Origin: Promethearchaeota archaeon
GTDB taxonomy: Archaea; Asgardarchaeota; Odinarchaeia; Odinarchaeales; JBHLKK01
Assembly: GCA_048939465.1 (NCBI GenBank)
Contig: JBHLPL010000001.1
Location: forward strand, 64,684-96,683
Direction of reading: 5' to 3'
Length of the DNA stretch: 32,000 nt
Of this stretch, positions 3,203 through 21,805 are shown in pieces; the stretch's first letter is position 1, and every line of letters starts with the position of its first letter. The position numbers and the translations under genes were made by a program. Below the pieces are notes generated by a model. That model did no database searches and was not told the origin of the DNA. It saw only the letters and a list, made by a program, of their open reading frames with translations.

Positions 3203-3817
3203 TCATGACCTGCTTTCCTTTAGTTTCTTAATTTCTTTTTCCAGCTCTGAGACCTTCTTCTCCGGTGCTGGAAGAGCAATACCTGTTTCAACAGTTATCT
3301 CCTGATCGATTTCGGTCAACGTTTTTTCAATTTCCTTATCACTAATCTCTTGCGAAACCGTGATTTCGAGTCCTGATTCAGCGATCTCTTTCGACACCTC
3401 AAATTGCTGTAGCTGACCTTCAACTTCTTTAATCAATTTGGCTATCTTTGGTACCTTCACAGCGTTCTTAAGTCCCCCAAGGACGTTACGGAGACTACCT
3501 AATATTTTGGACAAATCAGTAACAGATTCGCTTTGTCTGAGTTTTACAATTAGTCCCTCTATGGTCAATCTGTAGTTGTCAATGCCAACTGCCCACTTCT
3601 GAAATTGCAGGTAATGCTTTGCGTACGTCTTTGCAGCCTCATTATTGCCCTTGATACGTTGAGTTCGAGCTTTAGTACGGCTCTTGTCGCCTTCTCTTTC
3701 CAGTTGCATCCTTTGTCTATCGAGTTTCCGTGTGAGCAAATCCAACTGAAAAATGGCCTTCTCAAGCCTTTTTCTCTTAGACCCCCCTAACCAGTCAAAC
3801 AAACGGCCTAACGACAA
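3203..3817 (-). CDS. ESCRT-III subunit, Vps2/Vps24/Vps46 (CHMP1-3) class
   Basis: N-terminal amphipathic helix (LGRLFDWLGG), basic helical hairpin (LDRQRMQLERE...GNNEAAKTYAK), acidic C-half and terminal MIM1-like LEKEIKKLK. Divergent from vps4. TTG start after GAGGTG. Confidence 0.85.
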   Translation of the reverse strand: MSLGRLFDWLGGSKRKRLEKAIFQLDLLTRKLDRQRMQLEREGDKSRTKARTQRIKGNNEAAKTYAKHYLQFQKWAVGIDNYRLTIEGLIVKLRQSESVTDLSKILGSLRNVLGGLKNAVKVPKIAKLIKEVEGQLQQFEVSKEIAESGLEITVSQEISDKEIEKTLTEIDQEITVETGIALPAPEKKVSELEKEIKKLKESRS

Positions 3818-3858
3818 CTATTACACCTCATTAGTCACTGAAAGGTTGTACAACACAC

Positions 3859-3876
3859 ACAATTAAAGCTTACGAA
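3859..3876 (-). promoter_or_regulatory. Putative BRE-TATA for the ESCRT-III/ATPase operon
   Basis: Minus strand CGTAAG-CTTTAATT about 45 bp upstream of the ESCRT-III start, inside the divergent gap. Confidence 0.4.
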
Positions 3877-3978
3877 ATTACATCAAATACGGCTTTTCAT
3901 CACCTAAGTTTTTTAGGTTTGTTCTTCTAATAGTTAACTAGCCTATCGCAATGTCTACAGAATCCTATTTTCCTGAGG

Positions 3979-5142
3979 TTGGGATTGATGTCTGATAAGC
4001 TGTTCAAATACGCCACCCAGATGGCGAAGGAAGCTGTGAAACTTGACAAGCAAGGCAAACAGAAGCTGGCTGTACAGAAATATATTCATGCGGCCGATAT
4101 CTTGATGAGGTTTCTGAAATTAACCGAGAATCCCGCACTGAGAAAAGTATGTTATGAAAAGGCGGAGCAGTATGTGCAAAGAGCTAAAGAACTACAAGGT
4201 GTAACACCAGGTCTGCCGGCAGTATCAGAAAAAGCAGCGGGGAAAGCGCTGACCAAGGAAGATCAAGCCCTCCAAGAAGCAATCTCGGATACCATAATCA
4301 CTGAGAAACCAAGTGTTGAATGGGAAGACGTAGCAAATCTAGAGACGGCAAAACAAGCCTTGAGAGAGGCTGTTATCTTACCGATGCTCAGACCAGATAT
4401 TTTTACTGGTGCAAGGGAACCTTGGCGTGGATTATTGTTGATCGGACCACCCGGATGTGGAAAAACACTGCTCGCAAAAGCTGTGGCGAACGAATGCAAC
4501 GCAACATTCTTCAGCGCTGACGCAGCCTCTTTGGTTTCAAAGTGGCTGGGAGAATCGGAAAAACTTGTAAGCACATTATTTACCGTTGCACGAAGTAGCT
4601 CCCCTTCCGTTGTGTTCATCGACGAAGTGGATGCTTTGGCAACAGTTAGATCGGGTGATGAGGTTGGAGGTGAGCGGAGAATGAAGACGCAGCTATTAAT
4701 AGAAATGGATGGGGTTCGAAAACGAAAGGGAGAGCAAGTAGTAGTTCTTGGCGCCACGAACAGGCCATGGGATCTTGACCCGGGTTTTCGTAGAAGGTTC
4801 GAAAAAAGAATTTATGTGCCCCTTCCTGATAAGGAAGGCCGTCGCGAGATATTTAAGATTCACGTCAGAGGAATTGAAATAGCTTCAGATGTTGATTTTG
4901 ATGAACTAGCGACTCTTACTGAGGGATACTCCGGCTCAGATATTGCGCTGATATGTAGGGATGCTGCCATGATGCCAATACGTGAACTGGATACCGCAGG
5001 CACGTTGACTAGGAAAGATATCAAAGTTCGATCGGTAGATCGTGAGGATTTTCTGAAGTCCATGAAAAAGGTTAGGCCAACTGTTTCACCAGACGAACTG
5101 GAGAAATACGAGGAATGGACCAAAGAATTCGCATCAGAATGA
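3979..5142 (+). CDS. vps4: Vps4 AAA+ ATPase with N-terminal MIT domain
   Basis: Three-helix MIT (AKEAVKLDKQG...YVQRAKEL), WEDVA, GPPGCGKT, FIDEVD, GATNRPWDLD..RRFEKRIYVPLP, C-terminal helix PTVSPDELEKYEEW. The real start may be ATG 3988. Confidence 0.95.
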   Translation: MGLMSDKLFKYATQMAKEAVKLDKQGKQKLAVQKYIHAADILMRFLKLTENPALRKVCYEKAEQYVQRAKELQGVTPGLPAVSEKAAGKALTKEDQALQEAISDTIITEKPSVEWEDVANLETAKQALREAVILPMLRPDIFTGAREPWRGLLLIGPPGCGKTLLAKAVANECNATFFSADAASLVSKWLGESEKLVSTLFTVARSSSPSVVFIDEVDALATVRSGDEVGGERRMKTQLLIEMDGVRKRKGEQVVVLGATNRPWDLDPGFRRRFEKRIYVPLPDKEGRREIFKIHVRGIEIASDVDFDELATLTEGYSGSDIALICRDAAMMPIRELDTAGTLTRKDIKVRSVDREDFLKSMKKVRPTVSPDELEKYEEWTKEFASE

Positions 5143-5156
5143 ACTGGTGATATATA

Positions 5157-5903
5157 TTGTCGGTAAGGGAAAAGCCACGTAAAAAAGCTGGGAAGTCTCA
5201 AAAGGAAGAAACTGACAAGAAGGAGCGAATCAAAGAAGAGCTTGAGGAACTCAAGGAAGAAGTTGAAACAATGGTGGAGGCAGAAGAAGCTGAGACAATA
5301 GAAGAGGTTGAGAAAATCCAAGAGCCTAGCGCTAGGCAACTTCCGAAGGCGGTTGCTGAGGAAATCTCCTCTGAATTGGAGAAGATCTGTAACTTATATG
5401 AATGGGTTGCAAATCCTGAACAAGTCAGATGGATGTATTGGATGCCCTCCAATAAAGAGCATATTGATTCATGGAGAGACGAATGGGCTGATTTCTTGTT
5501 TCAATGGGCCCGAGCAAAAATCCTTCATATAGTAACACTGGTCTTGCTTATGGGTGAACACCCATTTGATAAGTTATCTCCAAAGGTGGATTCGCTGAGA
5601 GTTATTATGAAAACCCTAGCTGAGAAGGATCTTGCTGAATTCTTGGATAATAAAGAAACCAGATTGCGAATATACTGGAGGACTCTTAATGAGTGGGCAG
5701 AAATAATCTATAACTGGGCACTCAATACCGGAAGAATGGATATAAGTGTTTTTGATGTTATTAATGACAGAGGGGAAAAGTGGGGCTTTCACACGCTGCC
5801 AGCGAAAGAAATTAGACTCATCTTCAGGATTATGGTAGAGCGTGGGTTGGCCCGTTGGATGGACGAGAAGAGAGGCCATATTGAGATAAGAGTAGACTTT
5901 TGA
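5157..5903 (+). CDS. vps25: ESCRT-II Vps25 (EAP20)-like tandem winged-helix protein with charged N-terminal extension
   Basis: Vps25-type Trp pattern (SWRDEWADFL; LAEFLDNKETRLRIYWRTLNEWAEIIYNW; FHTLP..I...MVERGLARW). 14 bp after vps4; TTG start after GGTGA. Confidence 0.85.
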   Translation: MSVREKPRKKAGKSQKEETDKKERIKEELEELKEEVETMVEAEEAETIEEVEKIQEPSARQLPKAVAEEISSELEKICNLYEWVANPEQVRWMYWMPSNKEHIDSWRDEWADFLFQWARAKILHIVTLVLLMGEHPFDKLSPKVDSLRVIMKTLAEKDLAEFLDNKETRLRIYWRTLNEWAEIIYNWALNTGRMDISVFDVINDRGEKWGFHTLPAKEIRLIFRIMVERGLARWMDEKRGHIEIRVDF

Positions 5904-5945
5904 CCTGTCTTTCGCGGTTATGCACCATCTAAGCGGATTATCTTG

Positions 5946-5960
5946 CGAAAATCTTAAATC
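5946..5960 (+). promoter_or_regulatory. Putative BRE-TATA for the surface protein gene
   Basis: CGAAAAT-CTTAAAT about 65 bp upstream of the ORF. Confidence 0.4.
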
Positions 5961-6023
5961 TTTTTATGTGAATATTATAACAGATCACGCGTAACTCCGA
6001 TTCATGGATTAGATTAAGATGAA

Positions 6024-9000
6024 GTGGTCGTCATGCAAGCCAAAAGAAAAAATCTGCTAATATCTCTGGTCTTCACACTATTTCTGATCTCAACGCTCTC
6101 ATCAATTACAGTTCCACCCGTCACAGCTTCTCCAGATACTGCTGACTGGTGGAATTATAACTGGAATCAGAGGGTTCCAGTGATGATAAACACAACAGGT
6201 CACAACACATCCGACATACCGATAAAGATCGAAGGAATTAATTTCACTCAGCTTCTACTGGATCTGGGTGTCGGCTCTCCCCACGATAATAACTCGGTAA
6301 GAGTCGTGGAGTGGAACGTAGCATCGGAACTGAACACTGAATTACCGAGCTTATTTGCTCCTGCAGGCACGTATGACAGCTCCAGCAATGCTGTAGGTGA
6401 TGTTTACTGGACAATGAATGGAACAACACTTGAAAACACAAACAGAACCTTCTATGTATACTTCGATACTACTGATGCTCCTGGTGGTCCCAAGAGCCCA
6501 CCAAGCTACAGTGTGGATCCTCGTCTACCTGAAGGAATAGCCTATGTAAGAAACGCTAAGGACGATATATCTTATGAATCGGCCCAACAACTTGCTGCGG
6601 AATATGGGCTCGCCCAAGCTGCACTGTTCAATGAAAGCGTGAAATCAGGAAGTCATTACAGGAGCGGATCGGGTTGGCAAAACAACAGTATAGATCTCGT
6701 ACCTGATGACTACTCAATGATAATACTTGGGTCAGACTCCCTAGACGGTGGCGAAATACCTGGAAAACTCGATATAGACTCCCAATTCAGATCAAACTTG
6801 GAAGCTTTCATTGCTGGCGGCGGGATACTTGTTATTCAACAGATAACGTCAAGCGATCCTGCCCAGCCACTGACTGGAATTCAGTTCACAAGCTCTCACG
6901 GAGAAAGCTATAAGAAACCACTGCAACAGCACGAAATCACAACTAATCCAAACAATATTCGAACTGAAAATCTCAATTCGCTTTCAGATGGATTTGATAA
7001 AATTACGGACTCTACTCGCTACTCTTCGATAGCCAACGTGACAGATAACGGCGGAGGTCCAACAGGCCATCGAATCAGAATCATTCAGAGAGGAGCAGGC
7101 TATGTTATTGTAGAGGTACTGGGATGGACCTCAACTGGCGATATAGATAAGTGGAAACAGATCTTTGAAAACTATCTGAATTATCATATCAACCACACAA
7201 AGGATAGTCTGGCCATAACCGTTGGCAGCCAAGCAGAATATAGTCTGATTAACGATGTTACCGTAGTTGTAACAAATCATGAAGGATTATTCGTTCCTGA
7301 CGCAAATGTTACTATGGTCAACACGACAGCCCAGGCAAACAATCTTAGTGGCTACAACCAATGGGCATTAACAGATAGCAACGGCCAAGTTTTCTTCCCG
7401 GATGTACCAGATAACAACTATAATGTTACGGCAACTTACGTAACTAACATGGGAGATAGCACCGGAATTCTGAACGATACATTTTCAAACTTCAACATCA
7501 ATTATACTCAAACCCTCAATCTTAAAGTAAACATTACAAGGCTATTAGTGAACATCACTGATGTAGATAATATGACCCAGTATGATCTGATACCTAACTG
7601 GGCAGAACATTATATCGTTGGCCTTTTCAACCAGTCCGATGGGAGTCCGATGGCCAACACAACGACAACAACCTTGTACGAGTCTGGTGGTATTAACTGG
7701 CTTGTAGGAGAACTCTGGTGGCATAATTCATCGGACAATCATGTGATCAAAGTATTGTATGAGCATCCTGATTATTCGAATACACTGACTCTTAACGAGA
7801 CTAGTAACATACAACTTGATGTTTCGACTTCCTTCAACGTCAACGTCAGTATGACAAGGCTGACTGTTTTTGCCCGTGGGTATCCGACCATCGATCCGCT
7901 TGTTAATGTGGTTCTTGAGTTGAGCAACGATACGCAAGCAATAGCTAATGTCACAGCAGACGATTCAGGAGCGGTAGTCTTCTACTGGAGGACTCAACCC
8001 TCGCAGAATTACTCTATACGCGCATTCTACTTCGATACACTGGTCTCATTCATCAAATTCCATGAAAGCTGGTCTGATTGGAATGAAAGCGTTAGCCTAC
8101 CACTTCCAAATGCTACCGAAAAGCTGATTGATATTCAGCTGGGTGCGGAGTATGAGACGGATCTTGTACTAACTGCTTTTACCCCCGACGTCACGTATGG
8201 GGATAACGTAACGGTCACCGTGTATTTCAATGTCACAAGTCCTTCGCCAAGACCCGTAACTGGAGCAACCGCCAGATGCTACCTCAGAGTGGGAACAACA
8301 GATATCTTTATGGAAACAATGACTGAGGCAGGTTCCGGATATTATACACTGACATTCAACACGACTCACTACGGTGGCATAATAGGCGATGAAAACATAG
8401 AATATCGTATCTTAGTAATTGTTGAAAAATCAGGGTATACCTCTCCTACGCCGATATTCACCGACCTGACAATCAGGGGGCTCGCAACAACTTTGGATTG
8501 TTCAATCTCACCAGAAACCATTTACTGGGGCGACCTCATAACAGTAGACGTTACGTACGAGGATTTGGAGGACGCAACAGTCTCATACATAATTGGAAGT
8601 TGGGATTCTGGCGTATTCAGTGATCTTGGAAATGGAAACTACCGCACCTCGATAGACACCTCTAAATCGTCCTTCTGGGGAGACTACATATTAAAAATAA
8701 CTGCCGAAAAGCCGAATTATGAAATGAAGTACGCAGAAATAGCTCTTAGAATCAATCAGATACAGACTCTGATAAACGGATCTCGTATACTTGTCACATC
8801 ACCCATCAGCGTGTATGCAATGGAAGACAGTTTAATACACTTCAACTACACAACAGCTGGCAATATCGGCATCAACTCGACAGTCCATCAGTACTACTGG
8901 GAGAGCATATCAAGCGGTAGTGGCTACGGAGACTTGTCTTATCTTGGGAACGGTATGTATGGGCTGGATTTTGATACTTCGAACAGATTTGTTGATGAAT

Positions 9001-9980
9001 ACACAATTGCTGTTATATTTGAGAAATCGAATTATGAGGCAAGAACTGCTACATTCAATCTGAAGGTACTCGGGAGACCCGCAGATTTTGAAACCGTCAG
9101 TTCATCCGTTTCAGCTGCTCACGGTAATGAGGCAACATTCAGCTTCCACATTTCAGATGCTCTAACCGGTCTTCCTCTTGAAAATGTGTCCATAGTCCTA
9201 GACTGTAGCATAAATCCGGCATATTTGTCTTGGATTAATGGTAGTGGATGGTATAACCTAACCATACTCACTGCAAATCTTTCGCCCGGTTCATACGATA
9301 TCAAATTGGTCATTACTCAATCAAACTACACAACTGAAGTCGAAAACGTTCATATGACCGTTGAATATGAAAGAATCCTTGGGATGCCTTGGCCTTCATT
9401 TATTCTAATGATTTCATTCATAGCTGGTGCCGTTGCTGCTACTGGGGGCCTTTTCAGATTCTACACTTGGAAGAAAGTACCGCCTCTTGTCAGGAACATC
9501 AATAAGAGCCTCAAACACATGCAGCAAGGAGAAGTTGTAAACATAAAAAAGACGTTTCCAGACACAAAGGATAGGGACTATGTTCTCGGAGAATTCCTGA
9601 ACGAAGAGCTGGAGATTCTGGGAATAAGATCTGCAGCCTATGGGGAAGAAGGTTCTCAACTGCTCTCCATAGTTTCGGCGGCGACTTCATCCGAAACCGA
9701 AACAACGGAGTCTGAAACGCAGGTTATCAGGGCAGCGGAATCTGAGACTTTGCCTGAACCGGAAGCAACACAACCTGAAATGAAGGAATCTGAAGCAATG
9801 CCAAAAGAACCAGTCGAAGAACTTGAGGTAACCAAGGAACCTGAAATAGAGAAACCGGAGAAGAAAAAGCCTTACTCGGCAAAAGCCGGACCTAAGAGGC
9901 TAAAGACCAAGAAAACAGAAAAGAGAGAATCGAAATCAAGGTCAGGGAAGTCAAAGGCAAAAAACAAGGTGCAGAAATAA
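6024..9980 (+). CDS. Large type I membrane surface glycoprotein (DUF2341-like N-terminus, beta-sandwich/Ig-like repeats, C-terminal TM helix, cytoplasmic tail)
   Basis: Signal peptide (KRKNLLISLVFTLFLISTLSS), WWNYNWNQRVPVMIN...FYVYFD DUF2341-like block, about 40 N-x-S/T sequons counted by eye, one TM (WPSFILMISFIAGAVAATGGLF), then an acidic/Pro and Lys-rich tail. Confidence 0.85.
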   Translation: MVVMQAKRKNLLISLVFTLFLISTLSSITVPPVTASPDTADWWNYNWNQRVPVMINTTGHNTSDIPIKIEGINFTQLLLDLGVGSPHDNNSVRVVEWNVASELNTELPSLFAPAGTYDSSSNAVGDVYWTMNGTTLENTNRTFYVYFDTTDAPGGPKSPPSYSVDPRLPEGIAYVRNAKDDISYESAQQLAAEYGLAQAALFNESVKSGSHYRSGSGWQNNSIDLVPDDYSMIILGSDSLDGGEIPGKLDIDSQFRSNLEAFIAGGGILVIQQITSSDPAQPLTGIQFTSSHGESYKKPLQQHEITTNPNNIRTENLNSLSDGFDKITDSTRYSSIANVTDNGGGPTGHRIRIIQRGAGYVIVEVLGWTSTGDIDKWKQIFENYLNYHINHTKDSLAITVGSQAEYSLINDVTVVVTNHEGLFVPDANVTMVNTTAQANNLSGYNQWALTDSNGQVFFPDVPDNNYNVTATYVTNMGDSTGILNDTFSNFNINYTQTLNLKVNITRLLVNITDVDNMTQYDLIPNWAEHYIVGLFNQSDGSPMANTTTTTLYESGGINWLVGELWWHNSSDNHVIKVLYEHPDYSNTLTLNETSNIQLDVSTSFNVNVSMTRLTVFARGYPTIDPLVNVVLELSNDTQAIANVTADDSGAVVFYWRTQPSQNYSIRAFYFDTLVSFIKFHESWSDWNESVSLPLPNATEKLIDIQLGAEYETDLVLTAFTPDVTYGDNVTVTVYFNVTSPSPRPVTGATARCYLRVGTTDIFMETMTEAGSGYYTLTFNTTHYGGIIGDENIEYRILVIVEKSGYTSPTPIFTDLTIRGLATTLDCSISPETIYWGDLITVDVTYEDLEDATVSYIIGSWDSGVFSDLGNGNYRTSIDTSKSSFWGDYILKITAEKPNYEMKYAEIALRINQIQTLINGSRILVTSPISVYAMEDSLIHFNYTTAGNIGINSTVHQYYWESISSGSGYGDLSYLGNGMYGLDFDTSNRFVDEYTIAVIFEKSNYEARTATFNLKVLGRPADFETVSSSVSAAHGNEATFSFHISDALTGLPLENVSIVLDCSINPAYLSWINGSGWYNLTILTANLSPGSYDIKLVITQSNYTTEVENVHMTVEYERILGMPWPSFILMISFIAGAVAATGGLFRFYTWKKVPPLVRNINKSLKHMQQGEVVNIKKTFPDTKDRDYVLGEFLNEELEILGIRSAAYGEEGSQLLSIVSAATSSETETTESETQVIRAAESETLPEPEATQPEMKESEAMPKEPVEELEVTKEPEIEKPEKKKPYSAKAGPKRLKTKKTEKRESKSRSGKSKAKNKVQK

Positions 9981-10053: not shown

Positions 10054-10800
10054 TTATGAGTTTTTACTTGCCTTGCCTCCTAGCCCGGGAAAGTAGTACT
10101 TTTCTCCTCTTGAATAGCTAGGATCCATTCTGGTAACCTTGGCTTTTTTTAATGCCTCTAATGCTCTTTTGACTCTGGTCTCGTTCCACCCGGTTTTCAC
10201 CATGATTTCCTCAGGAGTCGTCCAGCCTTTCTCGCTTGCAATGTTCAATATCTCATTCTGATCATTTCCCAGCTCCACAGAAATGAATTGAACAACCTTC
10301 ACGTCTGACTTCAACTTCATGATTCCTGGTATCATATCTTCTTCTTCCATTTTCCTTATGGCCTTCATAACATCCTCTACTGATATCTTTCCCTTGATCA
10401 TTCCTGTGTTGACCAATAAAACAGCTTCTGGAATTGTCATAATTCCACCTGTTTCTTGCCTTCTCATCAGGGCTCTCTGATAAAGAAGCAAACCCAGTTT
10501 CTCATGATCAACTTTAGTTCTGAAAAATCCCTTCCTCACCACATCCTCTTCTCTCACAATCTGGGTAATAATAGCGCTTTTGGGAATACCGAACTTCTTT
10601 CTAATCTTTTCAACTTCCGAGCGGAACTCGGGATTTATGTCGAGCAGGATTCCATACTTCTTGACTATCTCTACCAGCTTTTCCCTCGTACGCTTGGCCA
10701 TTTCAAGCTCGCTTGCCATATTCTGAAGTCTCAACTCAACGCCTTTTTCTTCCAAGGCTCGTTTTGCTCTCATCTCCTTCTCAATTTCGTAAAGACCCAA
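10054..10800 (-). CDS. vps22: ESCRT-II Vps22 (EAP30/SNF8)-like protein
   Basis: Vps22-type N-terminus (MGLYEI...INPEFRSEV..IRKKFGI), GGIMTIPE winged helix, GWNETRVKRAL..L and D.SYSRGEKYYFPG ending. TTG start abuts the vps28 stop. Confidence 0.9.
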   Translation of the reverse strand: MGLYEIEKEMRAKRALEEKGVELRLQNMASELEMAKRTREKLVEIVKKYGILLDINPEFRSEVEKIRKKFGIPKSAIITQIVREEDVVRKGFFRTKVDHEKLGLLLYQRALMRRQETGGIMTIPEAVLLVNTGMIKGKISVEDVMKAIRKMEEEDMIPGIMKLKSDVKVVQFISVELGNDQNEILNIASEKGWTTPEEIMVKTGWNETRVKRALEALKKAKVTRMDPSYSRGEKYYFPGLGGKASKNS

Positions 10801-11598
10801 TCAAACGCCCCCCTCGGACACTTCCTTCAGCTTAGCTTCAAAGTCTTTAAGCCATCTATCCGCTTGGAACCCAAGCCTTTCGGCCTCCTCTTCACTGACA
10901 GTCTCGCTTGGTTTTCGAGACTTAAGCCTGTCGCGCCATTCTTCAATCTCCTTGATAACCCAGTACTTCGCATTGAATCCAGGAAATCTCTTCATAATAC
11001 TCAGAAGCTCGTCTAGTCGTGGAACAAGCATATCAACTCTTGCTACGTCCTTCAGTCTTGTAAGATCCATCACAGTAATCAGATTCGTTGTGATGTCGAG
11101 CGTTTTAGAAGCGACTGTTGCAGGAGAAGCTGTCAAAATCTCTAGAAGAGCGCCTGTCTCACCCTCTGCAAGTTTTAGTTTATTGATCGCCAAAGGAAAC
11201 TCCCTTACTATTCCTTCATCTTCCAAGAACTTGGCAACGTCGATATTCAGTTCTTCCAATCTGCCTTTAGCCTTGAATGCGCCTGTCATTAGCGCTCGGA
11301 CTTGACGCTTGTACATTGCTGGCTCTATTCTGGCTTCCTTGAAACTCTCGATTATGGATTCCAGTGTTGCGATGCATGCATAGAGTTCTGCCTGTTTGTC
11401 AAGAACGTATTTTCTCTGGGAAGGACTGAGCCTCTGAAGTGCTTCAGACTCCCCCCCTCGAACCGACTCGCTTAGTGTCGATTTGTATTCCGACGCAGTT
11501 GAGCTGTTTTCAAGGGGCTCTTTTGGGGCTTCTTCTTTTTTCTTTTCCTTTCTTTTCTTTTCTGCCTCGGATGTTTCACGCTTTCTGGTTACTTCCAT
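10801..11598 (-). CDS. vps28: ESCRT-I Vps28, full length (N-terminal core plus C-terminal four-helix bundle)
   Basis: QAELYACIATLESI..F....I....Y N-domain motif; ITVMDLTRL...VDMLVPRLDEL...EWRDRL...EEAERLGFQ C-domain motif. ATG 11598 follows GGTGA SD (ORF track starts at 11607). Confidence 0.9.
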   Translation of the reverse strand: MEVTRKRETSEAEKKRKEKKKEEAPKEPLENSSTASEYKSTLSESVRGGESEALQRLSPSQRKYVLDKQAELYACIATLESIIESFKEARIEPAMYKRQVRALMTGAFKAKGRLEELNIDVAKFLEDEGIVREFPLAINKLKLAEGETGALLEILTASPATVASKTLDITTNLITVMDLTRLKDVARVDMLVPRLDELLSIMKRFPGFNAKYWVIKEIEEWRDRLKSRKPSETVSEEEAERLGFQADRWLKDFEAKLKEVSEGGV

Positions 11599-11628
11599 CC
11601 CGTTCACCAGCGAGTGAGAAAAAGAATA

Positions 11629-12384: not shown

Positions 12385-12480
12385 GTGATTGCCTCCCTTT
12401 TGGGTTTTTTCAAGAATAATTATCAAGAACAGACATAAAAACTCTTGCCATATTGTGCTTCTCAGAAGGAAAAGGAATGA

Positions 12481-14144: not shown

Positions 14145-14669
14145 CTACTCACTCTGGGTTTTCAACTTCGTAAAAAGTTGCTTTAACTCCATGTTTAGTG
14201 CTCTTCGGACATTTACTGGACTGATAGGTATTGCGGGTCTGGGCGGCTCAGCTGCTCCTTGTGCGGCCACAGGAGTAGCTCCGCCTGTAGCTGCGGGTGC
14301 AACTCCAGGAGCAGTAGCGGGGGTAGGTGACGGTGAAGCTGAGGCAGACGTAGAGGCTGGAGCCGTTGGCGATACTGCTGAAGGTCTTATTGCGGTCTCT
14401 GCAGGTTTCCCAGCGGCCCCTTGGGAAACGGTACTTGCAGTGACTGGAAGAGAGACTCGAGACTCAATCGAGTTAATCCTACTCTCTATTACGCCTATTT
14501 TGATTTCGAGGTTCTTGGACAGACTATTCAGGTTTTGCTCCAGCATATCAATGGCGTTTATAACGATTTCCATAACTCTGCTTAGTATCGTACTAATTTC
14601 CTGGATACGCTTTGGTTGTGACAGCGTTTCATCAATAAGCCTTACGAAGTCTTCTCCCATATCGAACAC
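14145..14669 (-). CDS. Hypothetical protein: N-terminal coiled coil, Ala/Pro/Thr/Ser-rich linker with PTAP, C-terminal amphipathic helix
   Basis: Heptads (LEQNLNSLSKNLEIKIGVIESRINSIESRV), low-complexity linker, terminal helix RRALNMELKQLFTKLK. Starts 15 bp after the DedA stop. Confidence 0.75.
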   Translation of the reverse strand: MFDMGEDFVRLIDETLSQPKRIQEISTILSRVMEIVINAIDMLEQNLNSLSKNLEIKIGVIESRINSIESRVSLPVTASTVSQGAAGKPAETAIRPSAVSPTAPASTSASASPSPTPATAPGVAPAATGGATPVAAQGAAEPPRPAIPISPVNVRRALNMELKQLFTKLKTQSE

Positions 14670-14684
14670 CGTCTATGATTATCA

Positions 14685-15527
14685 CTAAACTTTGCGGTTT
14701 ATAATCTTTTCTTTTGTATGACTAATAATCATCGCTGTCTTTTTCCCTTCTTCTTTCCTCCTGTCCGAGGCAACCTCGTGGTTAGTGTTTTGGGTCTCTT
14801 TTGCTTCCATCTTCTCCCCCGAGATCTCTTCCTTTCTTTTCTCCTTGGTTATGAATGAACCCCAATCTATTCTGAGCATCAGATAGACCAATAGAATCGT
14901 TCCCAAAATTCCTATCACGGTACCTGCTGTGCCCCCGCCTCCAAATAATGCTTCAACCAGCGGCCGGAAAAACCTCCCTCCGTAAGCCAAGATTGCGCAT
15001 AGAACTATCTTCCCCAAAATGGCTGCGACAACCGCTTTGACAATGCTATACTTCATTACGCCTACAGGGATAAGAAGCATATCATCAGGTAAAGGCGTAG
15101 CTGCGAACAAGAATATTGCTGCAAATCCATACTTCTCAATTAACTTCTTCATGGATTCTATTCTCTTACCGTATTTTTCTTCGATTAGCTCCCTTCCTCC
15201 CCGCCCTATCGCATAGGCGCTCAATTCTCCAATAGCTGCGCCAAATCCGCAGACTAATGCAAGTATCAGCGGCTCAATAAACTCCTGGGTTCCCAGAAGG
15301 ATTACAGCCAGAGCGTAGGGAACGGGTAGGAAAACTGTGAAGTTGCCAAAGGTGGATATTAGGAAGGCCCCGAAATAGACAGACAGTGGACTTCCCACAG
15401 CAAAGTTGAACATCCCAATCGTTAAGCTGTCAAAGAAATTGGCAATAGCTTCTATTGAAAACAGAACCACCAATGCTATTCCGGTGATTACAAAAGCTAT
15501 TATGAAAATAATGTCTCGACGTTCCAT
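14685..15527 (-). CDS. DedA/VTT (SNARE-associated Golgi protein, Tvp38/TMEM41-like) membrane protein
   Basis: FLPVPY re-entrant helix, GAAIGELSAYAIGRGG, FLFAATPLPDDMLLIPVG, GKIV motifs; several TM segments. Confidence 0.9.
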   Translation of the reverse strand: MERRDIIFIIAFVITGIALVVLFSIEAIANFFDSLTIGMFNFAVGSPLSVYFGAFLISTFGNFTVFLPVPYALAVILLGTQEFIEPLILALVCGFGAAIGELSAYAIGRGGRELIEEKYGKRIESMKKLIEKYGFAAIFLFAATPLPDDMLLIPVGVMKYSIVKAVVAAILGKIVLCAILAYGGRFFRPLVEALFGGGGTAGTVIGILGTILLVYLMLRIDWGSFITKEKRKEEISGEKMEAKETQNTNHEVASDRRKEEGKKTAMIISHTKEKIINRKV

Positions 15528-15597: not shown

Positions 15598-16563
15598 ATG
15601 ACTATTTCCACTCCGAATTCTCCGTTAACCTTGATGGAGGATATACTGCTGGCAGAGCTTAAGGCCCTTGTAGAAATAATTCGGTTGCCCAATTGCCTCA
15701 TGGGTAGCTTGACCACGTCGATTTCCGTATTGACAGTAGACAGCATCCTAGACCTGACAGCCGGAGTAAGCCTGTCCGCTGTTAGCCTCATCTGGTTGCT
15801 TGTTATTGCCTATATTACTTACGTCTTTGCAGCGGCTGCAGGGAACGTTGTAAATGACGTATTCGATATCGAAGTAGACAGGATAAATCGGCCAAATCGG
15901 GTGCTTCCAAGAAGAGCACTAACTGTGCGTCAAGCTAAGATATACACAATTCTGCTTTGGCTGGCCTGTTCATTCTGCGCCTTCTTAACAAGCATCCCGG
16001 CTGGAATTATTGCTACAACCTTTTCACTAGTTGGTTTCGGTTATGCATCAAGGGCCAAACTGCTAGGAATATGGGGGAACTTCACCGTTTCGTTTTCTTT
16101 TGCCTTTGGTTTGATTTACGGCTCTCTAATAACTTATTATGCCGCTTTGGGCACGCTGGGTCTCCCCCTCCTAATATGGCTTTACTTCTTCACGGCGTTC
16201 TTTATCCTTCAGGGCAGAGAAGTGATTAAGGGGATGGAGGATGTTGAGGGTGACCGAGTGAGGGGTGTGAAAACCGTAGCTTTGGTTTACGGCTTTAGGA
16301 GGGCATCTATCGTGGCTGCTCTTTTCAATATCATAAGCATGATTTGCTTCACAGCCGCGTGGTTTCTGAGTTGGTCCGGCTGGTCGTCCTTACCAAATAT
16401 CTGGTACACCGTTTTTCTATTACCCGGCGATGGTATTGTGCTGGCTTCTACAATCTTGATCTTAATGAAATCATCTTCATCTTCAGCTCAGAATAGAGCC
16501 AGTTTCTATTCCAAAATAGGAAGTCTCCTAGGTCTGTTGGCATTCTTGGTAGGAGCACTATAA
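15598..16563 (+). CDS. UbiA-family prenyltransferase, probably digeranylgeranylglyceryl-phosphate (DGGGP) synthase
   Basis: IRLPNC, GNVVNDVFDIEVDRINRPNRVLP first Asp-rich motif, REVIKGMEDVEGD..G..T second motif, multiple TMs. The start is probably at or after 15634. Confidence 0.88.
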   Translation: MTISTPNSPLTLMEDILLAELKALVEIIRLPNCLMGSLTTSISVLTVDSILDLTAGVSLSAVSLIWLLVIAYITYVFAAAAGNVVNDVFDIEVDRINRPNRVLPRRALTVRQAKIYTILLWLACSFCAFLTSIPAGIIATTFSLVGFGYASRAKLLGIWGNFTVSFSFAFGLIYGSLITYYAALGTLGLPLLIWLYFFTAFFILQGREVIKGMEDVEGDRVRGVKTVALVYGFRRASIVAALFNIISMICFTAAWFLSWSGWSSLPNIWYTVFLLPGDGIVLASTILILMKSSSSSAQNRASFYSKIGSLLGLLAFLVGAL

Positions 16564-16780: not shown

Positions 16781-17638
16781 ATGATTCATTCGGTTTATGT
16801 AATCCGAAGGACAGGAGAATGCCTATTCTCCAGAGTATATGATAAGAACGGAATCGACGAAGCCCTAATATCCGGCTTCTTAAGCGCTCTACAATCTTTC
16901 ATAAATGAAATCAGTGGAGATTATGTAAGGACTCTGAAAACTGGAAATGTGAAATTTGTCTATAATTTACTGGATGATCTGATATTCGTATTCTGCGTCG
17001 ATCTAGAAGAAGATGAGGAAAAACTGAGAAAGAAGATAAATCTCACTCAGAGTGTCTTCGTAAGGAGATTTGGCAGCATAATAGAAGGCTGGAATGGTCA
17101 AACCAGCATCTTCGAATCCTTCAATGTAACAGTAGATGACATTGTTACAGATCTCGTAAAGGTATCCGTAATTGGATTTGGGGGTGTCGGTAAGACGACT
17201 CTCCTCAAGCTTATTCTAAGGGAAGAAGTTCCCGTACAACACATTCCAACAATAGCGGTTGATATCAAAGATCTTAACGGTGTAAAATCCCCGGCAAAGG
17301 TGGTCATGTGGGATTTTGCTGGACAACAGCGTTTTGAATCCCTTTGGGATGTGATGATTAAAGGCTCAGACGTTATTCTAATTGTTACGGATTCTTCCAT
17401 GTTAAATATAGTAAAGACCAAGAAAAAAATCATCTCCCTCATTAAAGAGCATAATCCCGGCGCGAGAGTTATTGCTATTGCAAACAAACAAGACCTTCCG
17501 AATTCGATAAAGCCAAGAGCAATTAGTGACCTTCTAGGCGTACCGGTTTATGGAATTGTCGGCATAGACCCTTCAAATCGAGGGCAATTGCTTGAGATAA
17601 TAGGCGATACTGTTAATAGCTGGCTAGAATATTCATAA
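16781..17638 (+). CDS. Longin domain fused to an Arf/Rab-like small GTPase
   Basis: Longin pattern MIHSVYVIRRTGECLFSR...LISGFLSALQSF...FVY...LIFVFCVD; G1 GFGGVGKT, G2 IPTI, G3 WDFAGQ, G4 NKQD. Confidence 0.88.
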   Translation: MIHSVYVIRRTGECLFSRVYDKNGIDEALISGFLSALQSFINEISGDYVRTLKTGNVKFVYNLLDDLIFVFCVDLEEDEEKLRKKINLTQSVFVRRFGSIIEGWNGQTSIFESFNVTVDDIVTDLVKVSVIGFGGVGKTTLLKLILREEVPVQHIPTIAVDIKDLNGVKSPAKVVMWDFAGQQRFESLWDVMIKGSDVILIVTDSSMLNIVKTKKKIISLIKEHNPGARVIAIANKQDLPNSIKPRAISDLLGVPVYGIVGIDPSNRGQLLEIIGDTVNSWLEYS

Positions 17639-17684: not shown

Positions 17685-18437
17685 ATGTTTCTTGTGGGGG
17701 CCGTAGGAGACATTCATGGACCGAAGTATCTATACCTGTTTAAGAATGGACTAAGCTCACTAAAAGGAAATGTCTTAGACGATATTAATTGTCTATTTTT
17801 TGCCGGCGATATCATATCAAAAGGCCATACTGAAGATCTCCAAGCGGTAATAAGGACCATCGATGACTTTGAAGTTAGATGTCCTTTGATCTCCTGCTTC
17901 GGTAACGAGGAGTATGAAGAAACGCATAACATAATACGAGAGAAATTCGGCAGTAGGGTTACATTCCTGGATGATGAGTCTTTTGTCTTGAACCTGAAAG
18001 ACGATAGGACACTAGGGATTGTGGGATCTAAAGGGAGTCTAGATCGACCCACATGGTGGCAAAGTAGGAATATTCCAAACATCCTTCAGATATATTCTCA
18101 GAGAATCAGTGTAATAGGTGGTCTCCTTCAGAAATTGAAGACTGATTTCAAGATCTTACTCCTACATTATGCTCCGACTTTCAAAACATTAGGTGGCGAA
18201 GGAAGAACTTTTTACCAGCAATTAGGAAGCAAAAAGCTTGAGACTATAATCAGCAGAAGCAAACCGGACGTAGTTATCCATGCCCATGCCCACAATGGAC
18301 GCAGATTTGCCCTTTTGGGTGAGATTCCTATATACAACGTTTCTCTTCCTCTTACCCGGACAATCACAGTCATAAAACTACCGGGATTTGCTATCTCCGA
18401 TTCCTCGGAAGATAATAAGGAAGAATATACATCATGA
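17685..18437 (+). CDS. Calcineurin-like metallophosphoesterase (Icc-related)
   Basis: GDIHG, AGDII, GNEE, HYAP and HAHAH metal-binding motifs. Confidence 0.9.
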   Translation: MFLVGAVGDIHGPKYLYLFKNGLSSLKGNVLDDINCLFFAGDIISKGHTEDLQAVIRTIDDFEVRCPLISCFGNEEYEETHNIIREKFGSRVTFLDDESFVLNLKDDRTLGIVGSKGSLDRPTWWQSRNIPNILQIYSQRISVIGGLLQKLKTDFKILLLHYAPTFKTLGGEGRTFYQQLGSKKLETIISRSKPDVVIHAHAHNGRRFALLGEIPIYNVSLPLTRTITVIKLPGFAISDSSEDNKEEYTS

Positions 18438-18716
18438 ATACTTCAGTGTTATTTATGTTTATATGACTTAAAAAACATCTAACTCCTTGTTGTGCAAAAC
18501 GACTTTATCCCTTTCACCGTCGCTTAGTCCGGCGAGACACGATTCTGATAAGCTAATCTGATTGCTGTTGCCGATTGGATAAGGTCTTGTAGATCGCTTC
18601 AATCTGATGAAAATGTGAGGGTCAAATCCTTTAATCTGAAAATGCTGCCCTTGAGAGCGACCAGAATAGCCCGACTCCTCGTGAGGTCAAACAACCCGTT
18701 TGCTTGAGGGAGTTTC

Positions 18717-20522
18717 ATGAAGACTGTGAGAATCTGCAATTTTTGTGGAAGCAGAGAAGCAACTCATTATTGTGAGGAGTGTGGAGCCTCATTCTGCAGC
18801 AGGTGCGCAAGAAAGAAGAAGATCCAAATTAGCATATGTGTAAATTGCGGTGCATCTGTTGACAAACTCAGAAAACAGAGTAGTATTACGGCCTGCAATG
18901 ACTGTAATCCGTCAAGCACAAAATCTGCGATAAAATACATAACCCTATGCCCTGATTGCTCTTCAAAGACGGTAGTACGCATCAAGAAAAAAAACCATGA
19001 TTTGTTGATCAAACTCAAAAGTGCAGTTTCAAGTCTTATATCCGGCTACTATATCCTAAAACAATTTTTGGCTGAAGTGAATACCGTACGGCGCAGGATA
19101 GTAGCAATGAGGTATTATGGATTTAGACAGTATCCTGAACTCGAAAAGACATTGATTGCTGTCTATTCTGAAGTTCATACGTTGGGTCAGAACTTTGTCA
19201 ATACAGTATTCAAAACATTACAGGGAGTAGATTCTGAATTGCTTGTGGTTCTAAGGAAGAGACCATGGGACTCCAAAGATTTTCCCTCGGTAGAATCTCT
19301 GACAGAACAACTTAGAAAAGATGGACAGATGACTCAGAAAGACTTGATGAACAGACTAACTGATTTAAGACAGCTATTTATCGACCTTCTTCCTCTAATT
19401 GGGTCTCTGGAGTACTTCAGACAAGTGTACGATAGCATAGGGGAGCATTTAATCCTTGATAAGTATGAGAGAATCATCTGTGCGTTTAGCAAGGTGTCTC
19501 TGTCATCGAACTCATCCAAGCGGAGCAAGAATAACGGAACCTTGGTTCTTACAAACCGCAGAATAGTTCTTCATCAACAAGCAAAGGGAAAAGGGGCTTT
19601 CAATGTAATTGGGGCAAGATTGACTGATTTAAACTCCTATCATGTCGATGAAACAGATGGAAGAATAACTCTGGAAACAACGAATGGTAGAACGGAGTTC
19701 CTTGTTTCACAGAATGCTGCGAGTTTATTCAAGAGATCTCTAGAGGTAACCGACCGATACGACGGGAATTTAGTAGATTTGGATCGCTTAAATCGTCTCA
19801 TTAATATCCAGTGGGTTTCTTCGGAGTTATATCGTCTGAATAAGAAACTGCAGCTAGAGGTTCTCAATGTGCTGGGGGAGAAACCCAGACTTCTCGATTC
19901 AGCAGTTGTTGCTACATCTGTCTTTAGAGAGTACTCAAATGACACTCCTGAGCCACCGCAGGAGGGGCCAAATGTCTCGTTTGGGATCAAGAAAGACGAT
20001 CCCAAAGAGGCCATGAATTCGGAATCTTATAAGGGAACCAAGCCGGCAGGCGTTATTCGTCGCATTGTGAATTTATTTAAGAATAATAGAAATCGTGAAT
20101 TATCCGATCTAGTTCTGGAAATTGGCAGAAAGAACAGAACCAATACGGGCGGGATGGTTCCTTTAGCTGAAGTGTACCTATCGATAAAAGAACTCAGACC
20201 TAATCGGAACATCGATGTTGAGGAAGTTGAAAAAGCAATTGAAACACTTAAAGAAAAAGGACTTATAGTTGATTTTAGGGAACATAACTCTGGAATAAAA
20301 GTTGTTGAGTTCTTTCCATTAGAGTTCAGTAGTGATAAGAATACTGTTATAGATTTGGCAGCAGAAAGAGGTCACCTGACGCTTGAGGATGTCATACGCA
20401 ATACGGGATGGTTAGGGGTCAGAGCTGCAAGAGCACTTAAAGGGTTAGAGAAAATTGGGATAGCCAAGCTTGACCCTACATATTCTAGGGGAAAGCGTTG
20501 GTATTTCCCATACCTGAAATGA
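18717..20522 (+). CDS. Vps36-like ESCRT-II subunit: Cys-rich Zn-finger region, coiled coil, PH/GLUE-like domain, EAP30/Vps36 winged helices
   Basis: Six CxxC pairs in the first ~80 aa; NGTLVLTNRRIVL PH-like strand pair. The C-terminal ~140 aa align by eye with the Vps22 paralogue (TGGM.P..E; GIKVVEF; GW...RA.RAL..L; DPTYSRGKRWYFP vs DPSYSRGEKYYFP). Confidence 0.8.
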   Translation: MKTVRICNFCGSREATHYCEECGASFCSRCARKKKIQISICVNCGASVDKLRKQSSITACNDCNPSSTKSAIKYITLCPDCSSKTVVRIKKKNHDLLIKLKSAVSSLISGYYILKQFLAEVNTVRRRIVAMRYYGFRQYPELEKTLIAVYSEVHTLGQNFVNTVFKTLQGVDSELLVVLRKRPWDSKDFPSVESLTEQLRKDGQMTQKDLMNRLTDLRQLFIDLLPLIGSLEYFRQVYDSIGEHLILDKYERIICAFSKVSLSSNSSKRSKNNGTLVLTNRRIVLHQQAKGKGAFNVIGARLTDLNSYHVDETDGRITLETTNGRTEFLVSQNAASLFKRSLEVTDRYDGNLVDLDRLNRLINIQWVSSELYRLNKKLQLEVLNVLGEKPRLLDSAVVATSVFREYSNDTPEPPQEGPNVSFGIKKDDPKEAMNSESYKGTKPAGVIRRIVNLFKNNRNRELSDLVLEIGRKNRTNTGGMVPLAEVYLSIKELRPNRNIDVEEVEKAIETLKEKGLIVDFREHNSGIKVVEFFPLEFSSDKNTVIDLAAERGHLTLEDVIRNTGWLGVRAARALKGLEKIGIAKLDPTYSRGKRWYFPYLK

Positions 20523-20567
20523 TGTTGAAGAAATCTCTTGAGAAAGCCCATCAGCCTGGCTTTTGGT

Positions 20568-21011
20568 TCATCGCCTTCCCTCGCGGGAACGGCGGTAAGA
20601 TCCCCTACTGTAGGGTCTTCGTCTTGGTCTAAATCGGTCCTGTTCATATTGTTTTTCGGAGAGATTGTTCTCTGTGTTTACATCGCCAAACTCGGCATCC
20701 TCAAATGACTCAATCGTACCATATCTACCGATATTTAATCGCAAGGATCCCTTGAATACTGTACAGTATCCGTTGTTGATTTTGTATATCTGATCTATTT
20801 CCACCTTGTCAATGTCCTGATTCCAAAGAGTTAAGTACACGCTACCAGTCTCGTCACCCACCAGAGCTTCGGTGACTCTTAGTTGTTCACCTGTCTTTCT
20901 TGAGAATACCTCTCTTGCCTCATTCTTAGAGGCTACCTTAACTTTTACGTTTACACCTCTAGAGTTCGGATTTAGCTCTTCTACGACTACAAATTCCTCA
21001 GATTCGCTCAT
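20568..21011 (-). CDS. ssb: Single-OB-fold single-stranded DNA-binding protein (crenarchaeal-type SSB)
   Basis: VNVKVKV, EALVGDETGSVYLTLW, NGYCTVFKGSLRLNIGRYG, Arg-rich tail. ATG 21011 is preferred because the ORF-track start (21116) sits against the TATA box. Confidence 0.9.
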   Translation of the reverse strand: MSESEEFVVVEELNPNSRGVNVKVKVASKNEAREVFSRKTGEQLRVTEALVGDETGSVYLTLWNQDIDKVEIDQIYKINNGYCTVFKGSLRLNIGRYGTIESFEDAEFGDVNTENNLSEKQYEQDRFRPRRRPYSRGSYRRSREGRR

Positions 21012-21117
21012 TTTAGTTACATCTCTATTCATATACTTTGTTCGTTTAACAAGGATAGCAAAACAAGTCCCTAGAGCAAGTTTTACATCCTTAAGCGGTA
21101 TCGGGTTAGATTCCAAG

Positions 21118-21132
21118 ATATTTAAACCTTAC
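21118..21132 (-). promoter_or_regulatory. BRE-TATA promoter for ssb
   Basis: Minus strand GTAAGG-TTTAAATAT upstream of ssb. Confidence 0.55.
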
Positions 21133-21157
21133 TATATGGAAGAAATAGCTTTCTCGA

Positions 21158-21805
21158 TTACTCTTTTTCTTTTTCCTCTTCTGGTATGTCTTCTTTAAGC
21201 CCTTTCTTAATATCTTCAAGTTCCTTCCGTATTTTGTCCTTCTTCTTTTCAGCGACAGCCTTCTCTTTTTCGGTGGGAATCTCAGGTAACTCTTCTTCTA
21301 TGGCCACTTCCTCTTGAAGTTTTGCTAACTCCCTCTCTACGTCAATGTCTTCGCCTTCATCCAAAGCTGTGGCACTTAACATCTCACTGGTTTTCTCTAT
21401 CTCATCAACCAGTTGTTCAGTTTTTAGCATAACTTCAGTAGCTTTCTCACTTGACATAAGTCTTCTTGCTTCTTCAAGTTGTTCAAGACCAACTTCAAGG
21501 GCACGTCCCATGTCGGCAGTATCTCTAGCAGTCTCGATCATATCAATAACATCTTCTAGGCTGCCTACCTGTCTATGATAACGATTCATCCATGTGGTAT
21601 ATCTTTTCCATTTTCGAAGATGTGTCCTTGCCCCATCTGTGTTTCCTTGCCTTACAAGCTCTCTTGCTCTCTGCTTGCTTTCTCCTGCCTTTCTTTCAAA
21701 TCCACGAACTCTGAGTGTCATCTTGTTGATTGTTGCACGCATTTCTGTAACTGCTTCGTCTCTGCTTTCCTTTTTCTTGGGGAATAGCTTCCTCAGAAAA
21801 CCCAA
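21158..21805 (-). CDS. snf7: ESCRT-III subunit, Snf7/Vps20/Vps32/Vps60 (CHMP4-6) class
   Basis: MGFLRKLF amphipathic N-helix, AR.LVRQGN.DGAR..LRK.K, LEDVIDMIETA...DMGRAL, acidic DIDVERELAKLQEE and LPEIPT. TTG start after GAGGTGA. Confidence 0.88.
   Translation of the reverse strand: MGFLRKLFPKKKESRDEAVTEMRATINKMTLRVRGFERKAGESKQRARELVRQGNTDGARTHLRKWKRYTTWMNRYHRQVGSLEDVIDMIETARDTADMGRALEVGLEQLEEARRLMSSEKATEVMLKTEQLVDEIEKTSEMLSATALDEGEDIDVERELAKLQEEVAIEEELPEIPTEKEKAVAEKKKDKIRKELEDIKKGLKEDIPEEEKEKE

Follow-up and report, generated by a model that had tools for sequence, protein, structure and literature searches.

An Asgard ubiquitin-ESCRT gene cluster probably split by two inversions, and the lipid-synthase gene beside it

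Introduction

[quoted passage not shown] Among the closest described systems is the ubiquitin-ESCRT cluster of Candidatus (Ca.) Odinarchaeum yellowstonii LCB_4 (PMC9192718). Hatano et al. (2022, PMC9192718) reported that Asgard archaea yielded no homologue of Vps36, and proposed that an undiscovered partner may exist for the monomeric Vps22 of Odinarchaeum. Makarova et al. (2024, PMC11188069) described the Znr_PH_CC_SB proteins, a family of adaptors, as probably belonging to ESCRT-I. In Hodarchaeia, Yip1 and a Rab-like GTPase are encoded beside UEV-Vps23 (bioRxiv 10.1101/2023.07.25.550441), and VMP1, a eukaryotic member of the DedA superfamily, is linked to the ESCRT accessory protein ALIX in the title of another report (PMC10895845). 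Here we analyze a 32,000-nucleotide stretch of contig JBHLPL010000001.1 (the window) from an archaeon of the order Odinarchaeales, in which the ESCRT genes between positions 3203 and 21805 are interleaved with other genes, including a UbiA-family candidate for digeranylgeranylglyceryl phosphate (DGGGP) synthase (DGGGPS). We conclude that the region is probably an Odin-type ubiquitin-ESCRT cluster that was split by two inversions, that most of the interleaved membrane genes are its old neighbours, and that the proximity of UbiA to ESCRT predates the class.

Results

The ESCRT genes lie in three blocks

We assigned gene identities from six-frame open reading frames (ORFs) and searches of Pfam, NCBIfam and the Protein Data Bank (PDB). 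The window genes were then mapped genome-wide in 40 relatives from 19 families, and their positions were compared with those of Vps28 and Vps4. Families are coded f, genomes G and loci L; f1 and f2 are the two families of the class. All genes named in the original prediction were recovered in place, and the three ESCRT blocks that it had described are real.

The first block begins with ESCRT-IIIA, of the Vps2/24/46 type (3203..3817, minus strand; Pfam Snf7, E=8e-14; best PDB matches CHMP1B, CHMP2A and CHMP3), which is divergent from vps4 here and in all relatives. The Vps4 AAA ATPase (3979..5142, plus strand) matched Pfam MIT (46 bits), AAA (143 bits), AAA_lid_3 and Vps4_C (48 bits); it shares 44-93% identity with the aligned relatives and has a single-copy orthologue in 34 of 41 relatives. 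The ESCRT-II gene vps25 (5157..5903, plus strand; Pfam ESCRT-II, E=3e-12) starts 14 nt past vps4, and this pair is kept in all sampled relatives. The second block, on the minus strand, consists of UEV-Vps23 (11629..12426; Pfam UQ_con/UEV plus a CdvA-like coiled coil) and Vps28 (10801..11607; Pfam VPS28, E=8e-17; matches in 33 of 41 relatives), both of ESCRT-I, and the ESCRT-II subunit Vps22 (10054..10800; Pfam EAP30, E=3e-16). Vps23, Vps28, Vps22 and Vps25 all scored above the Pfam gathering scores. The third block contains a Vps36-like gene and ESCRT-IIIB, of the Vps20/32/60 (Snf7) type (21158..21805, minus strand; Pfam Snf7, E=8e-20; PDB Heimdall ESCRT-IIIB 9ftl, E=3e-17, and also yeast Snf7), so that one paralogue of each ESCRT-III type is present.

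The ESCRT genes are not contiguous: seven non-ESCRT genes interrupt them, and an SSB gene between the Vps36-like gene and ESCRT-IIIB is the eighth. Three of these separators, a P-loop GTPase-like protein, a 174-aa protein and a metallophosphoesterase, had gone unmentioned in the original prediction. DedA, the 174-aa protein, the P-loop protein, UEV-Vps23, Vps28 and Vps22 form, in this order of transcription, a six-gene run on the minus strand. The UbiA, longin-GTPase, metallophosphoesterase and Vps36-like genes run divergently from DedA, and ESCRT-IIIB and SSB converge on them. The cluster extends past the window, with Yip1, E1, E2, ubiquitin, RING and RING-GTPase genes less than 5 kb upstream on the same contig (C138); the ubiquitin, E1, E2 and RING genes lie 2.1-4.2 kb upstream (L125).

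We asked whether the blocks could have been joined by mis-assembly or mis-binning, because the genome is a 1.96-Mb draft in 152 contigs that was assembled from a metagenome and is 91% complete, with an estimated contamination of 3.8%. The GC content of the window is uniform (0.40-0.48). The same gene order occurs in two same-genus contigs, G001:C54 and G002:C95, which jointly span every junction, and a 230-kb NCBI contig of the genus (GCA_048886755.1, JBHLKL010000001.1; L126) shows the identical order with independent gene calls. In addition, an independent contig of 18,315 nt, taken from a mangrove metagenome of a different study, spans positions 4072-22000 with 35 differences (99.8% identity). 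A chimeric contig, which the original prediction had named as one finding that would overturn it, is excluded by these assemblies, and we regard an artefact as hardly conceivable.

Two inversions reproduce the gene order of the window

The genome of the window was placed in the same order as Odinarchaeum (G003 and G004) but in another family. In Odinarchaeum (G003, G004, G005) the genes read u182-Vps23-Vps28-Vps22, then Vps25<-Vps4, ESCRT-IIIA-ESCRT-IIIB-SSB, longin-GTPase<-(MFS)<-UbiA, and finally DedA, the 174-aa gene, the P-loop gene and a GTPase gene, where u182 encodes a 182-aa protein. The SSB, longin-GTPase, UbiA, DedA, 174-aa and P-loop genes thus flank the ESCRT cluster in this family (G003-G006) and are not interleaved with it. 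In-place inversion of the segment from Vps23 to ESCRT-IIIA, followed by that of the segment from ESCRT-IIIB to the P-loop gene, reproduces the order and strands of the window exactly from the Odinarchaeum order, and all adjacencies within both inverted segments are retained in the window.

A Hermodarchaeota locus (L059) reads E2-Ub-RING-u182-Vps23-Vps28-Vps22, 25<-4, ESCRT-IIIA and adaptor<-metallophosphoesterase<-UbiA, the adaptor being a protein of zinc (Zn) ribbons and a PH domain. ESCRT-IIIB was not detected in L059; it adjoins ESCRT-IIIA in L049, L054, L056, L058 and G026. Because L059 is contiguous as well, the contiguous form is probably the older one and the form of the window derived.

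These comparisons suggest the following history. From the contiguous order of Odinarchaeum and Hermodarchaeia, the segment Vps23 to ESCRT-IIIA would first have been inverted in place; the adjacent segment, ESCRT-IIIB to the P-loop gene, would have been inverted in place second; and three insertions would then have followed, namely HerA with its partner, the surface protein, and the longin-GTPase. Relative to Odinarchaeum, the lineage of the window adds HerA with a helical partner, the surface protein, the metallophosphoesterase and the Vps36-like gene. Neither of the last two was found anywhere in three Odinarchaeum-family genomes; alternatively, the metallophosphoesterase and the adaptor would have been lost by Odinarchaeum. 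Because two inversions explain the layout, the interleaved genes appear to be ancestral distal neighbours of the cluster.

How much these shared neighbours mean depends on the background. About 60 kb around the flanking genes is collinear between the two families, reaching some 20 kb upstream and continuing on contig C34, and nearly all ORFs from 40 kb of G003, when compared with the whole genome of the window, map to C138 or, in order, to C34. With such high background collinearity, shared neighbours within the class prove little, and their linkage is explicable by plain inheritance. The SSB, P-loop and DedA genes would then be ordinary genes whose proximity persists because genomes of the class are reshuffled slowly.

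Several points weigh against the two-inversion history. No repeat or mobile element was found at the inversion breakpoints in a repeat scan of the window, and the model is built from gene order alone. At the block borders, scans of the window for tRNAs, Rfam families and repeats gave no hits. The ancestral order depends on Hermodarchaeia being a valid outgroup. The P-loop gene lies 54 nt upstream of vps23 and the 174-aa gene 15 nt after DedA; in this genus, the P-loop, DedA and 174-aa genes may now share transcripts with ESCRT-I/II, and new co-regulation could result. Finally, the source labels the same-genus metagenome-assembled genomes (MAGs) 'Candidatus Hodarchaeota', at odds with their placement beside Odinarchaeum. 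This label may be a misclassification; the Odin placement of the genus is supported by its long collinearity with Odinarchaeum (G003).

The UbiA gene lies near ESCRT genes in other Asgard classes

We next examined the UbiA-family prenyltransferase (15598..16563, plus strand; Pfam UbiA, E=5e-31), the DGGGPS candidate. Its best PDB match was the DGGGPS of M. jannaschii (6m31, E=5e-27, full length). The top three NCBIfam matches, none of which reached its cut-off, were PRK12884, named only 'prenyltransferase', and two models of DGGGPS; the scores were 156 and 138 bits against equivalog cut-offs of 296 and 353. For a divergent lineage, sub-cut-off scores against the DGGGPS models would be expected. 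Residues N86, D87, D90 and D94 of the Asp-rich motif are invariant in the alignment, and the genome has just one further UbiA gene, a far weaker match (E=2e-6). An 86-aa ORF (15531-15791) is probably not a gene, and the UbiA orthologues begin to align at about residue 18.

UbiA lies 1-15 kb from ESCRT genes in Hermodarchaeia (G026), in Thorarchaeia (G010, G030, G039) and in G009 (family f5). In Hermodarchaeia (G026, G016, L049, L054, L056, L058, L059), UbiA, a metallophosphoesterase and a Zn-ribbon/PH adaptor of about 500 aa form a tight co-directional array abutting ESCRT-III, with gaps of 23 and 70 nt in G026. UbiA is directly behind ESCRT-IIIA in G009. In Thorarchaeia (the three genomes above and five named loci) it stays at a constant 11-13 kb from the adaptor, the interval being filled with unrelated genes (TFIIB, TldD/PmbA, methyltransferases). 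Across 80 UbiA-anchored loci, only ESCRT genes, the adaptor and the phosphoesterase are retained near UbiA outside the class; this does not hold for DedA, the P-loop gene, SSB or the downstream metabolic genes. The closed genomes G017, G027, G029 and G040 (f4, f13, f19) lack the link, as does the near-complete 8-contig G011 (f7), and it was not seen in the UbiA loci labelled Jord-, Borr-, Njord-, Hod- and Promethearchaeia. We found no published report of a UbiA-ESCRT association in the literature searched.

Because chance placement within 15 kb has odds of about 1% per 3-Mb genome, the UbiA-ESCRT pattern is non-random. Slow decay of one ancestral arrangement would account for it just as well as selection.

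The calcineurin-like ('Icc-related') metallophosphoesterase (17685..18437, plus strand; Pfam Metallophos) belongs to a widespread archaeal family and lies between UbiA and the Zn-ribbon/PH adaptor both here and in Hermodarchaeia. It is unlinked to UbiA in Thor, f7, f13, f15 and f19 genomes. We considered whether UbiA and the metallophosphoesterase are a general archaeal pair and rejected this idea: the pair was not found in a Methanomassiliicoccales or a Nitrososphaerota locus, nor in UbiA loci labelled Bathyarchaeota or Nitrososphaerota. The joint absence of metallophosphoesterase and adaptor from Odinarchaeum was also rejected as a signal, as the two genes do not track each other across the 40 relatives; f13 has the metallophosphoesterase without the adaptor, and f3, f5, f9, f10 and f14 have the adaptor without the metallophosphoesterase.

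Could DGGGP synthase, metallophosphoesterase and adaptor work together? In such a scheme, local ether-lipid synthesis or head-group trimming would make a membrane patch that is read by the PH domain, which would in turn recruit ESCRT-II/III. The tight trio beside ESCRT-III in Hermodarchaeia speaks for it, as do the same trio order in the window, with the longin-GTPase inserted, and the positions of UbiA in G009 and Thorarchaeia. Moreover, the metallophosphoesterase is the one non-ESCRT gene of the window that lies less than 10 kb from UbiA and also stays beside it outside the class. On the other side, UbiA is the genome's only good DGGGPS candidate and hence an essential housekeeping gene; the link is absent from the closed and near-complete genomes named above; unrelated genes occupy the Thor interval; and the metallophosphoesterase is generic, unlinked to UbiA in most Asgard families and two non-Asgard archaea, and independent of the adaptor in its occurrence. 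We consider this scheme unlikely. What survives cross-class comparison is the narrower DGGGPS-adaptor association, for which a functional coupling is hypothetical and rather unlikely.

The Vps36-like protein combines a Zn-ribbon/PH adaptor with Vps22-like winged helices

In the window, the adaptor position is occupied by the 601-aa Vps36-like protein (18717..20522, plus strand), which matched Pfam EAP30 (E=2e-11) and stayed below threshold for the Vps36 GLUE domain (22 bits, threshold 24.1). An AlphaFold2 (AF2) model (pLDDT 69) predicts Zn ribbons at residues 1-88, helices at 89-239, a PH sandwich of seven strands and a helix at 253-346, a disordered linker at 390-479 and two winged helices at 480-596. 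The best Foldseek matches of this model were human Vps22/Vps36 and PH domains, including the Vps36 GLUE domain 2cay (TM 0.62 by target). Residues 1-390 align with the approximately 500-aa proteins encoded beside ESCRT-III in Hermodarchaeia, Thorarchaeia, G032, G009 and G012, and in the alignment the two groups share invariant Cys pairs, the long helical region and a PH-type motif. The full architecture was found in only three protein clusters (64-100% identity).

The winged-helix part is nearer to Vps22 (E=6e-6) than to Vps36 (E=3e-3) in the PDB sequence search and is paralogous to the local Vps22. Because of this, and because the Zn ribbons precede the PH domain, the sequence comparison indicates that the protein is an analogous fusion, a Vps22 paralogue rather than a Vps36 orthologue. 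As modelled, it has the right domain plan for the Vps22 partner proposed by Hatano et al., but it occurs in the sister family and not in Odinarchaeum. A broader proposal joins the two leads: an ancestral operon-level module of DGGGPS, metallophosphoesterase and adaptor, present in Odin and Hermod and loosely in Thor lineages, would tie lipid synthesis or modification on the spot to the recruitment of ESCRT, and the Vps36-like protein, an adaptor that gained Vps22-type winged helices in this one family, would be a third ESCRT-II subunit. Taken as a whole, this proposal is rather unlikely.

DedA, the longin-GTPase and the surface protein are not linked to ESCRT outside the class

The DedA/VTT membrane protein (14685..15527, minus strand) scored 52 bits against Pfam VTT_dom (cut-off 33.9) and has about six hydrophobic segments. 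The divergent DedA-UbiA pair was found only in f1 and f2, and genome-wide positions in the 40 relatives revealed no DedA orthologue near ESCRT outside these two families. In the genome's second DedA copy, a protein of 507 aa (G000:C90:6601-8124; L124:1602-3125, minus strand), the DedA part is joined to an undecaprenyl-diphosphate-phosphatase (UppP/BacA) domain. Judged from its domains, the fusion looks like a protein of carrier-lipid recycling, in which case the DedA linked to ESCRT would be available for a different substrate.

The longin-domain/small-GTPase fusion (16781..17638, plus strand; Pfam Fuz_longin_1 at residues 5-98, Arf/Roc/Ras at 126-254) belongs to a multi-copy family, with four matches at E<=1e-30 in this genome and 0-6 in relatives. 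None of the better matches outside the class lies near ESCRT. The type-I membrane surface protein (6024..9980, plus strand; 1318 aa) has a signal/anchor at residues 10-31, a CarboxypepD_reg domain, a Ser/Thr/Asn-rich ectodomain, a hydrophobic helix at 1118-1137 and a Lys/Glu-rich tail. At this position it was found in no genus but this one (G001, NCBI contig), and not at Odinarchaeum or other ESCRT loci.

These distributions bear on the proposal of the original prediction that the region is a supercluster coupling lipid synthesis, flipping, cargo capture and scission. As one selected unit, it would comprise DedA for flipping, DGGGPS for synthesis, the longin-GTPase for targeting, the surface protein as cargo and ESCRT for scission. 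All genes do lie within 19 kb, and the DedA-UbiA pair and the array of DedA, 174-aa and P-loop genes are kept between two families at 37-58% identity. The fusion of the other DedA to a polyprenyl-diphosphate phosphatase would allow a different lipid role for this copy, and Yip1 proteins and small GTPases recur near ubiquitin-ESCRT clusters (see also bioRxiv 10.1101/2023.07.25.550441). Against this, in all families outside the class the orthologues of DedA and of the longin-GTPase are distant from ESCRT, and a first look gave 4 to 119 GTPase-like candidates per genome, so that chance adjacency is likely. The surface protein is at the locus only in this genus, and the conservation within the class is matched by the general collinearity of about 60 kb. 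The proposal is thus not supported as a whole, and we judge it very unlikely. The synteny with ESCRT that it anticipated in related genomes does hold within the class, where the genes flank the Odinarchaeum cluster, with the exception of the surface protein; recurrence in unrelated Asgard lineages holds for UbiA in Hermod, Thor and G009 and is absent from five other families, occurs once for the P-loop gene (G032), and fails for DedA, the longin-GTPase, SSB and the surface protein.

Other genes in and around the window

The P-loop GTPase-like protein (12481..13824, minus strand; 447 aa) gave weak cobW/HypB matches and a PDB match to cyclic 2,3-diphosphoglycerate (cDPG) synthetase (E=1e-6), the similarity extending over about 110 residues. 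In Atlas, it belongs to a widespread and mostly bacterial 'putative GTPase' family. It is single copy, shares 50-67% identity across Asgard archaea, and is ESCRT-linked only in f1, f2 and G032. It is nearer to orthologues of distant Asgard families (60-67%) than to that of the sister family, Odinarchaeum (50%). In G032 (C17:150-172 kb; L017/L018), the orthologue (65% identity) is just behind a Zn-ribbon/PH adaptor beside ESCRT-III, and Yip1-E1-E2-Ub-RING-u182-Vps23-28-22 lies another 7 kb on; this is the sole P-loop-ESCRT linkage outside the class.

The 174-aa coiled-coil protein (14145..14669, minus strand) has a Pro/Ala linker and a conserved C-terminal helix, and showed no Pfam or NCBIfam match. 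Orthologues occur between DedA and the P-loop gene in G002, G003, G004 and G006, with invariant N- and C-terminal helices in the alignment. The C-terminal helix carries an L-x-x-E-L-x-x-L pattern like that of the ESCRT-IIIA tail. A complex prediction for this helix with the Vps4 MIT domain scored 0.19 (mark 0.32), which is evidence neither way. A PTAP in this protein was rejected as a conserved late-domain motif; it is confined to the genus, lies in a Pro/Thr/Ala-rich linker and is missing in the Odinarchaeum orthologues. A 187-aa ORF on the plus strand (14125-14688) is probably not a gene, as conservation and synteny favour the 174-aa gene on the minus strand.

The SSB gene (20568..21116, minus strand; Pfam Ssb-like_OB, NCBIfam SSB) encodes a single OB fold behind ESCRT-IIIB, and this pair is kept in f1 and f2 only.

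Outside the interval of the three blocks, a HerA/FtsK-like ATPase (554..3160, minus strand; Pfam DUF87/HerA, E=1e-13) lies downstream of ESCRT-IIIA in the same unit. Its orthologues (38-47% identity) are 1-6 kb from the Zn-ribbon/PH adaptor in four further families (G007:C16, G011:C2, G021:C54, G028:C76, G040:C1), and about 2 kb or less from Vps4 in G007 and G028. No orthologue was found in the Odinarchaeum, Hermod or Thor genomes searched.

A Zn-ribbon-Yip1 membrane protein is encoded on C138 beside E1, 4.3-5.0 kb upstream of the window (L125:7641-8426), and also beside the ubiquitin-ESCRT cluster in G003, G004, G007, G009, G028 and G032. Yip1 adjoins E1 or is less than 3 kb from it in f1, f2 and G032, is a few kb from ubiquitin in G007 and G028, and is the neighbour of Vps25 in G009; at virtually all Thorarchaeota loci it is directly downstream of UbiA. 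The published Yip1-ESCRT link (bioRxiv 10.1101/2023.07.25.550441) concerns Hodarchaeia only. The u182 gene (L125:11637-12185, about 0.5 kb upstream of the window; weak DUF7260 match) is kept between RING and UEV-Vps23 in many Asgard families and is here parted from Vps23 by inversion. Its product is probably the uncharacterised asCOG005522 protein of the same preprint.

Discussion

By analogy with eukaryotic and published Asgard systems, from which we took the pathway steps, the ubiquitin, E1, E2 and RING proteins encoded upstream would mark cargo, which UEV-Vps23 and Vps28 of ESCRT-I would bind. Vps22, Vps25 and the PH-domain Vps36-like protein, at the level of ESCRT-II, would form the bridge to the membrane. 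The ESCRT-III proteins would polymerise, first that of the Vps20/32/60 type and then that of the Vps2/24/46 type, and Vps4 would recycle them.

The striking 'interleaved' layout of the window shows that such an appearance can come from simple inversions, and it is a warning not to infer function from neighbouring positions within a single class whose genomes rearrange slowly. This leaves two leads. A lipid-synthase gene stays beside an ESCRT membrane adaptor across class-level divergence, and an adaptor confined to one family shares its domain plan with Vps36; under the broader proposal above, it would be the third ESCRT-II subunit reported missing from Asgard archaea.

Comparison with described systems places these observations in context. 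Like other members of the DedA superfamily (bacterial UptA, eukaryotic VMP1/TMEM41B), the window DedA has a VTT domain and weak similarity to UptA models; it differs in that its linkage to ESCRT is confined to one class, and its scramblase or flippase role is putative. As in the Hodarchaeia cluster, trafficking-type membrane and GTPase genes adjoin the ubiquitin-ESCRT genes, here Zn-ribbon-Yip1, RING-GTPase and longin-GTPase. The part of the preprint on that cluster available to us (bioRxiv 10.1101/2023.07.25.550441) reports no lipid-synthesis gene, whereas the window has UbiA. The Znr_PH_CC_SB adaptors (cog.011556, PMC11188069) align with residues 1-390 of the Vps36-like protein and are likewise encoded beside ESCRT-III, but they end in a steadiness-box hairpin, whereas the window protein ends in a Vps22-like tandem winged helix (EAP30). 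With eukaryotic Vps36 the window protein shares a PH/GLUE-like domain, a helical region and two winged helices, with separate Vps22 and Vps25 co-encoded; the Zn fingers of Vps36 are inserted in GLUE, whereas the Zn ribbons here are N-terminal to PH. The cluster of Ca. Odinarchaeum yellowstonii LCB_4 (PMC9192718) has the same ubiquitin, E1, E2, RING, Vps23, Vps28, Vps22, Vps25, Vps4 and two ESCRT-III genes and the same flanks of SSB, longin-GTPase, UbiA, DedA, 174-aa and P-loop genes, with identities of 33-61%. Its ESCRT genes are contiguous, whereas ESCRT-IIIA and ESCRT-IIIB of the window are split by two inverted segments.

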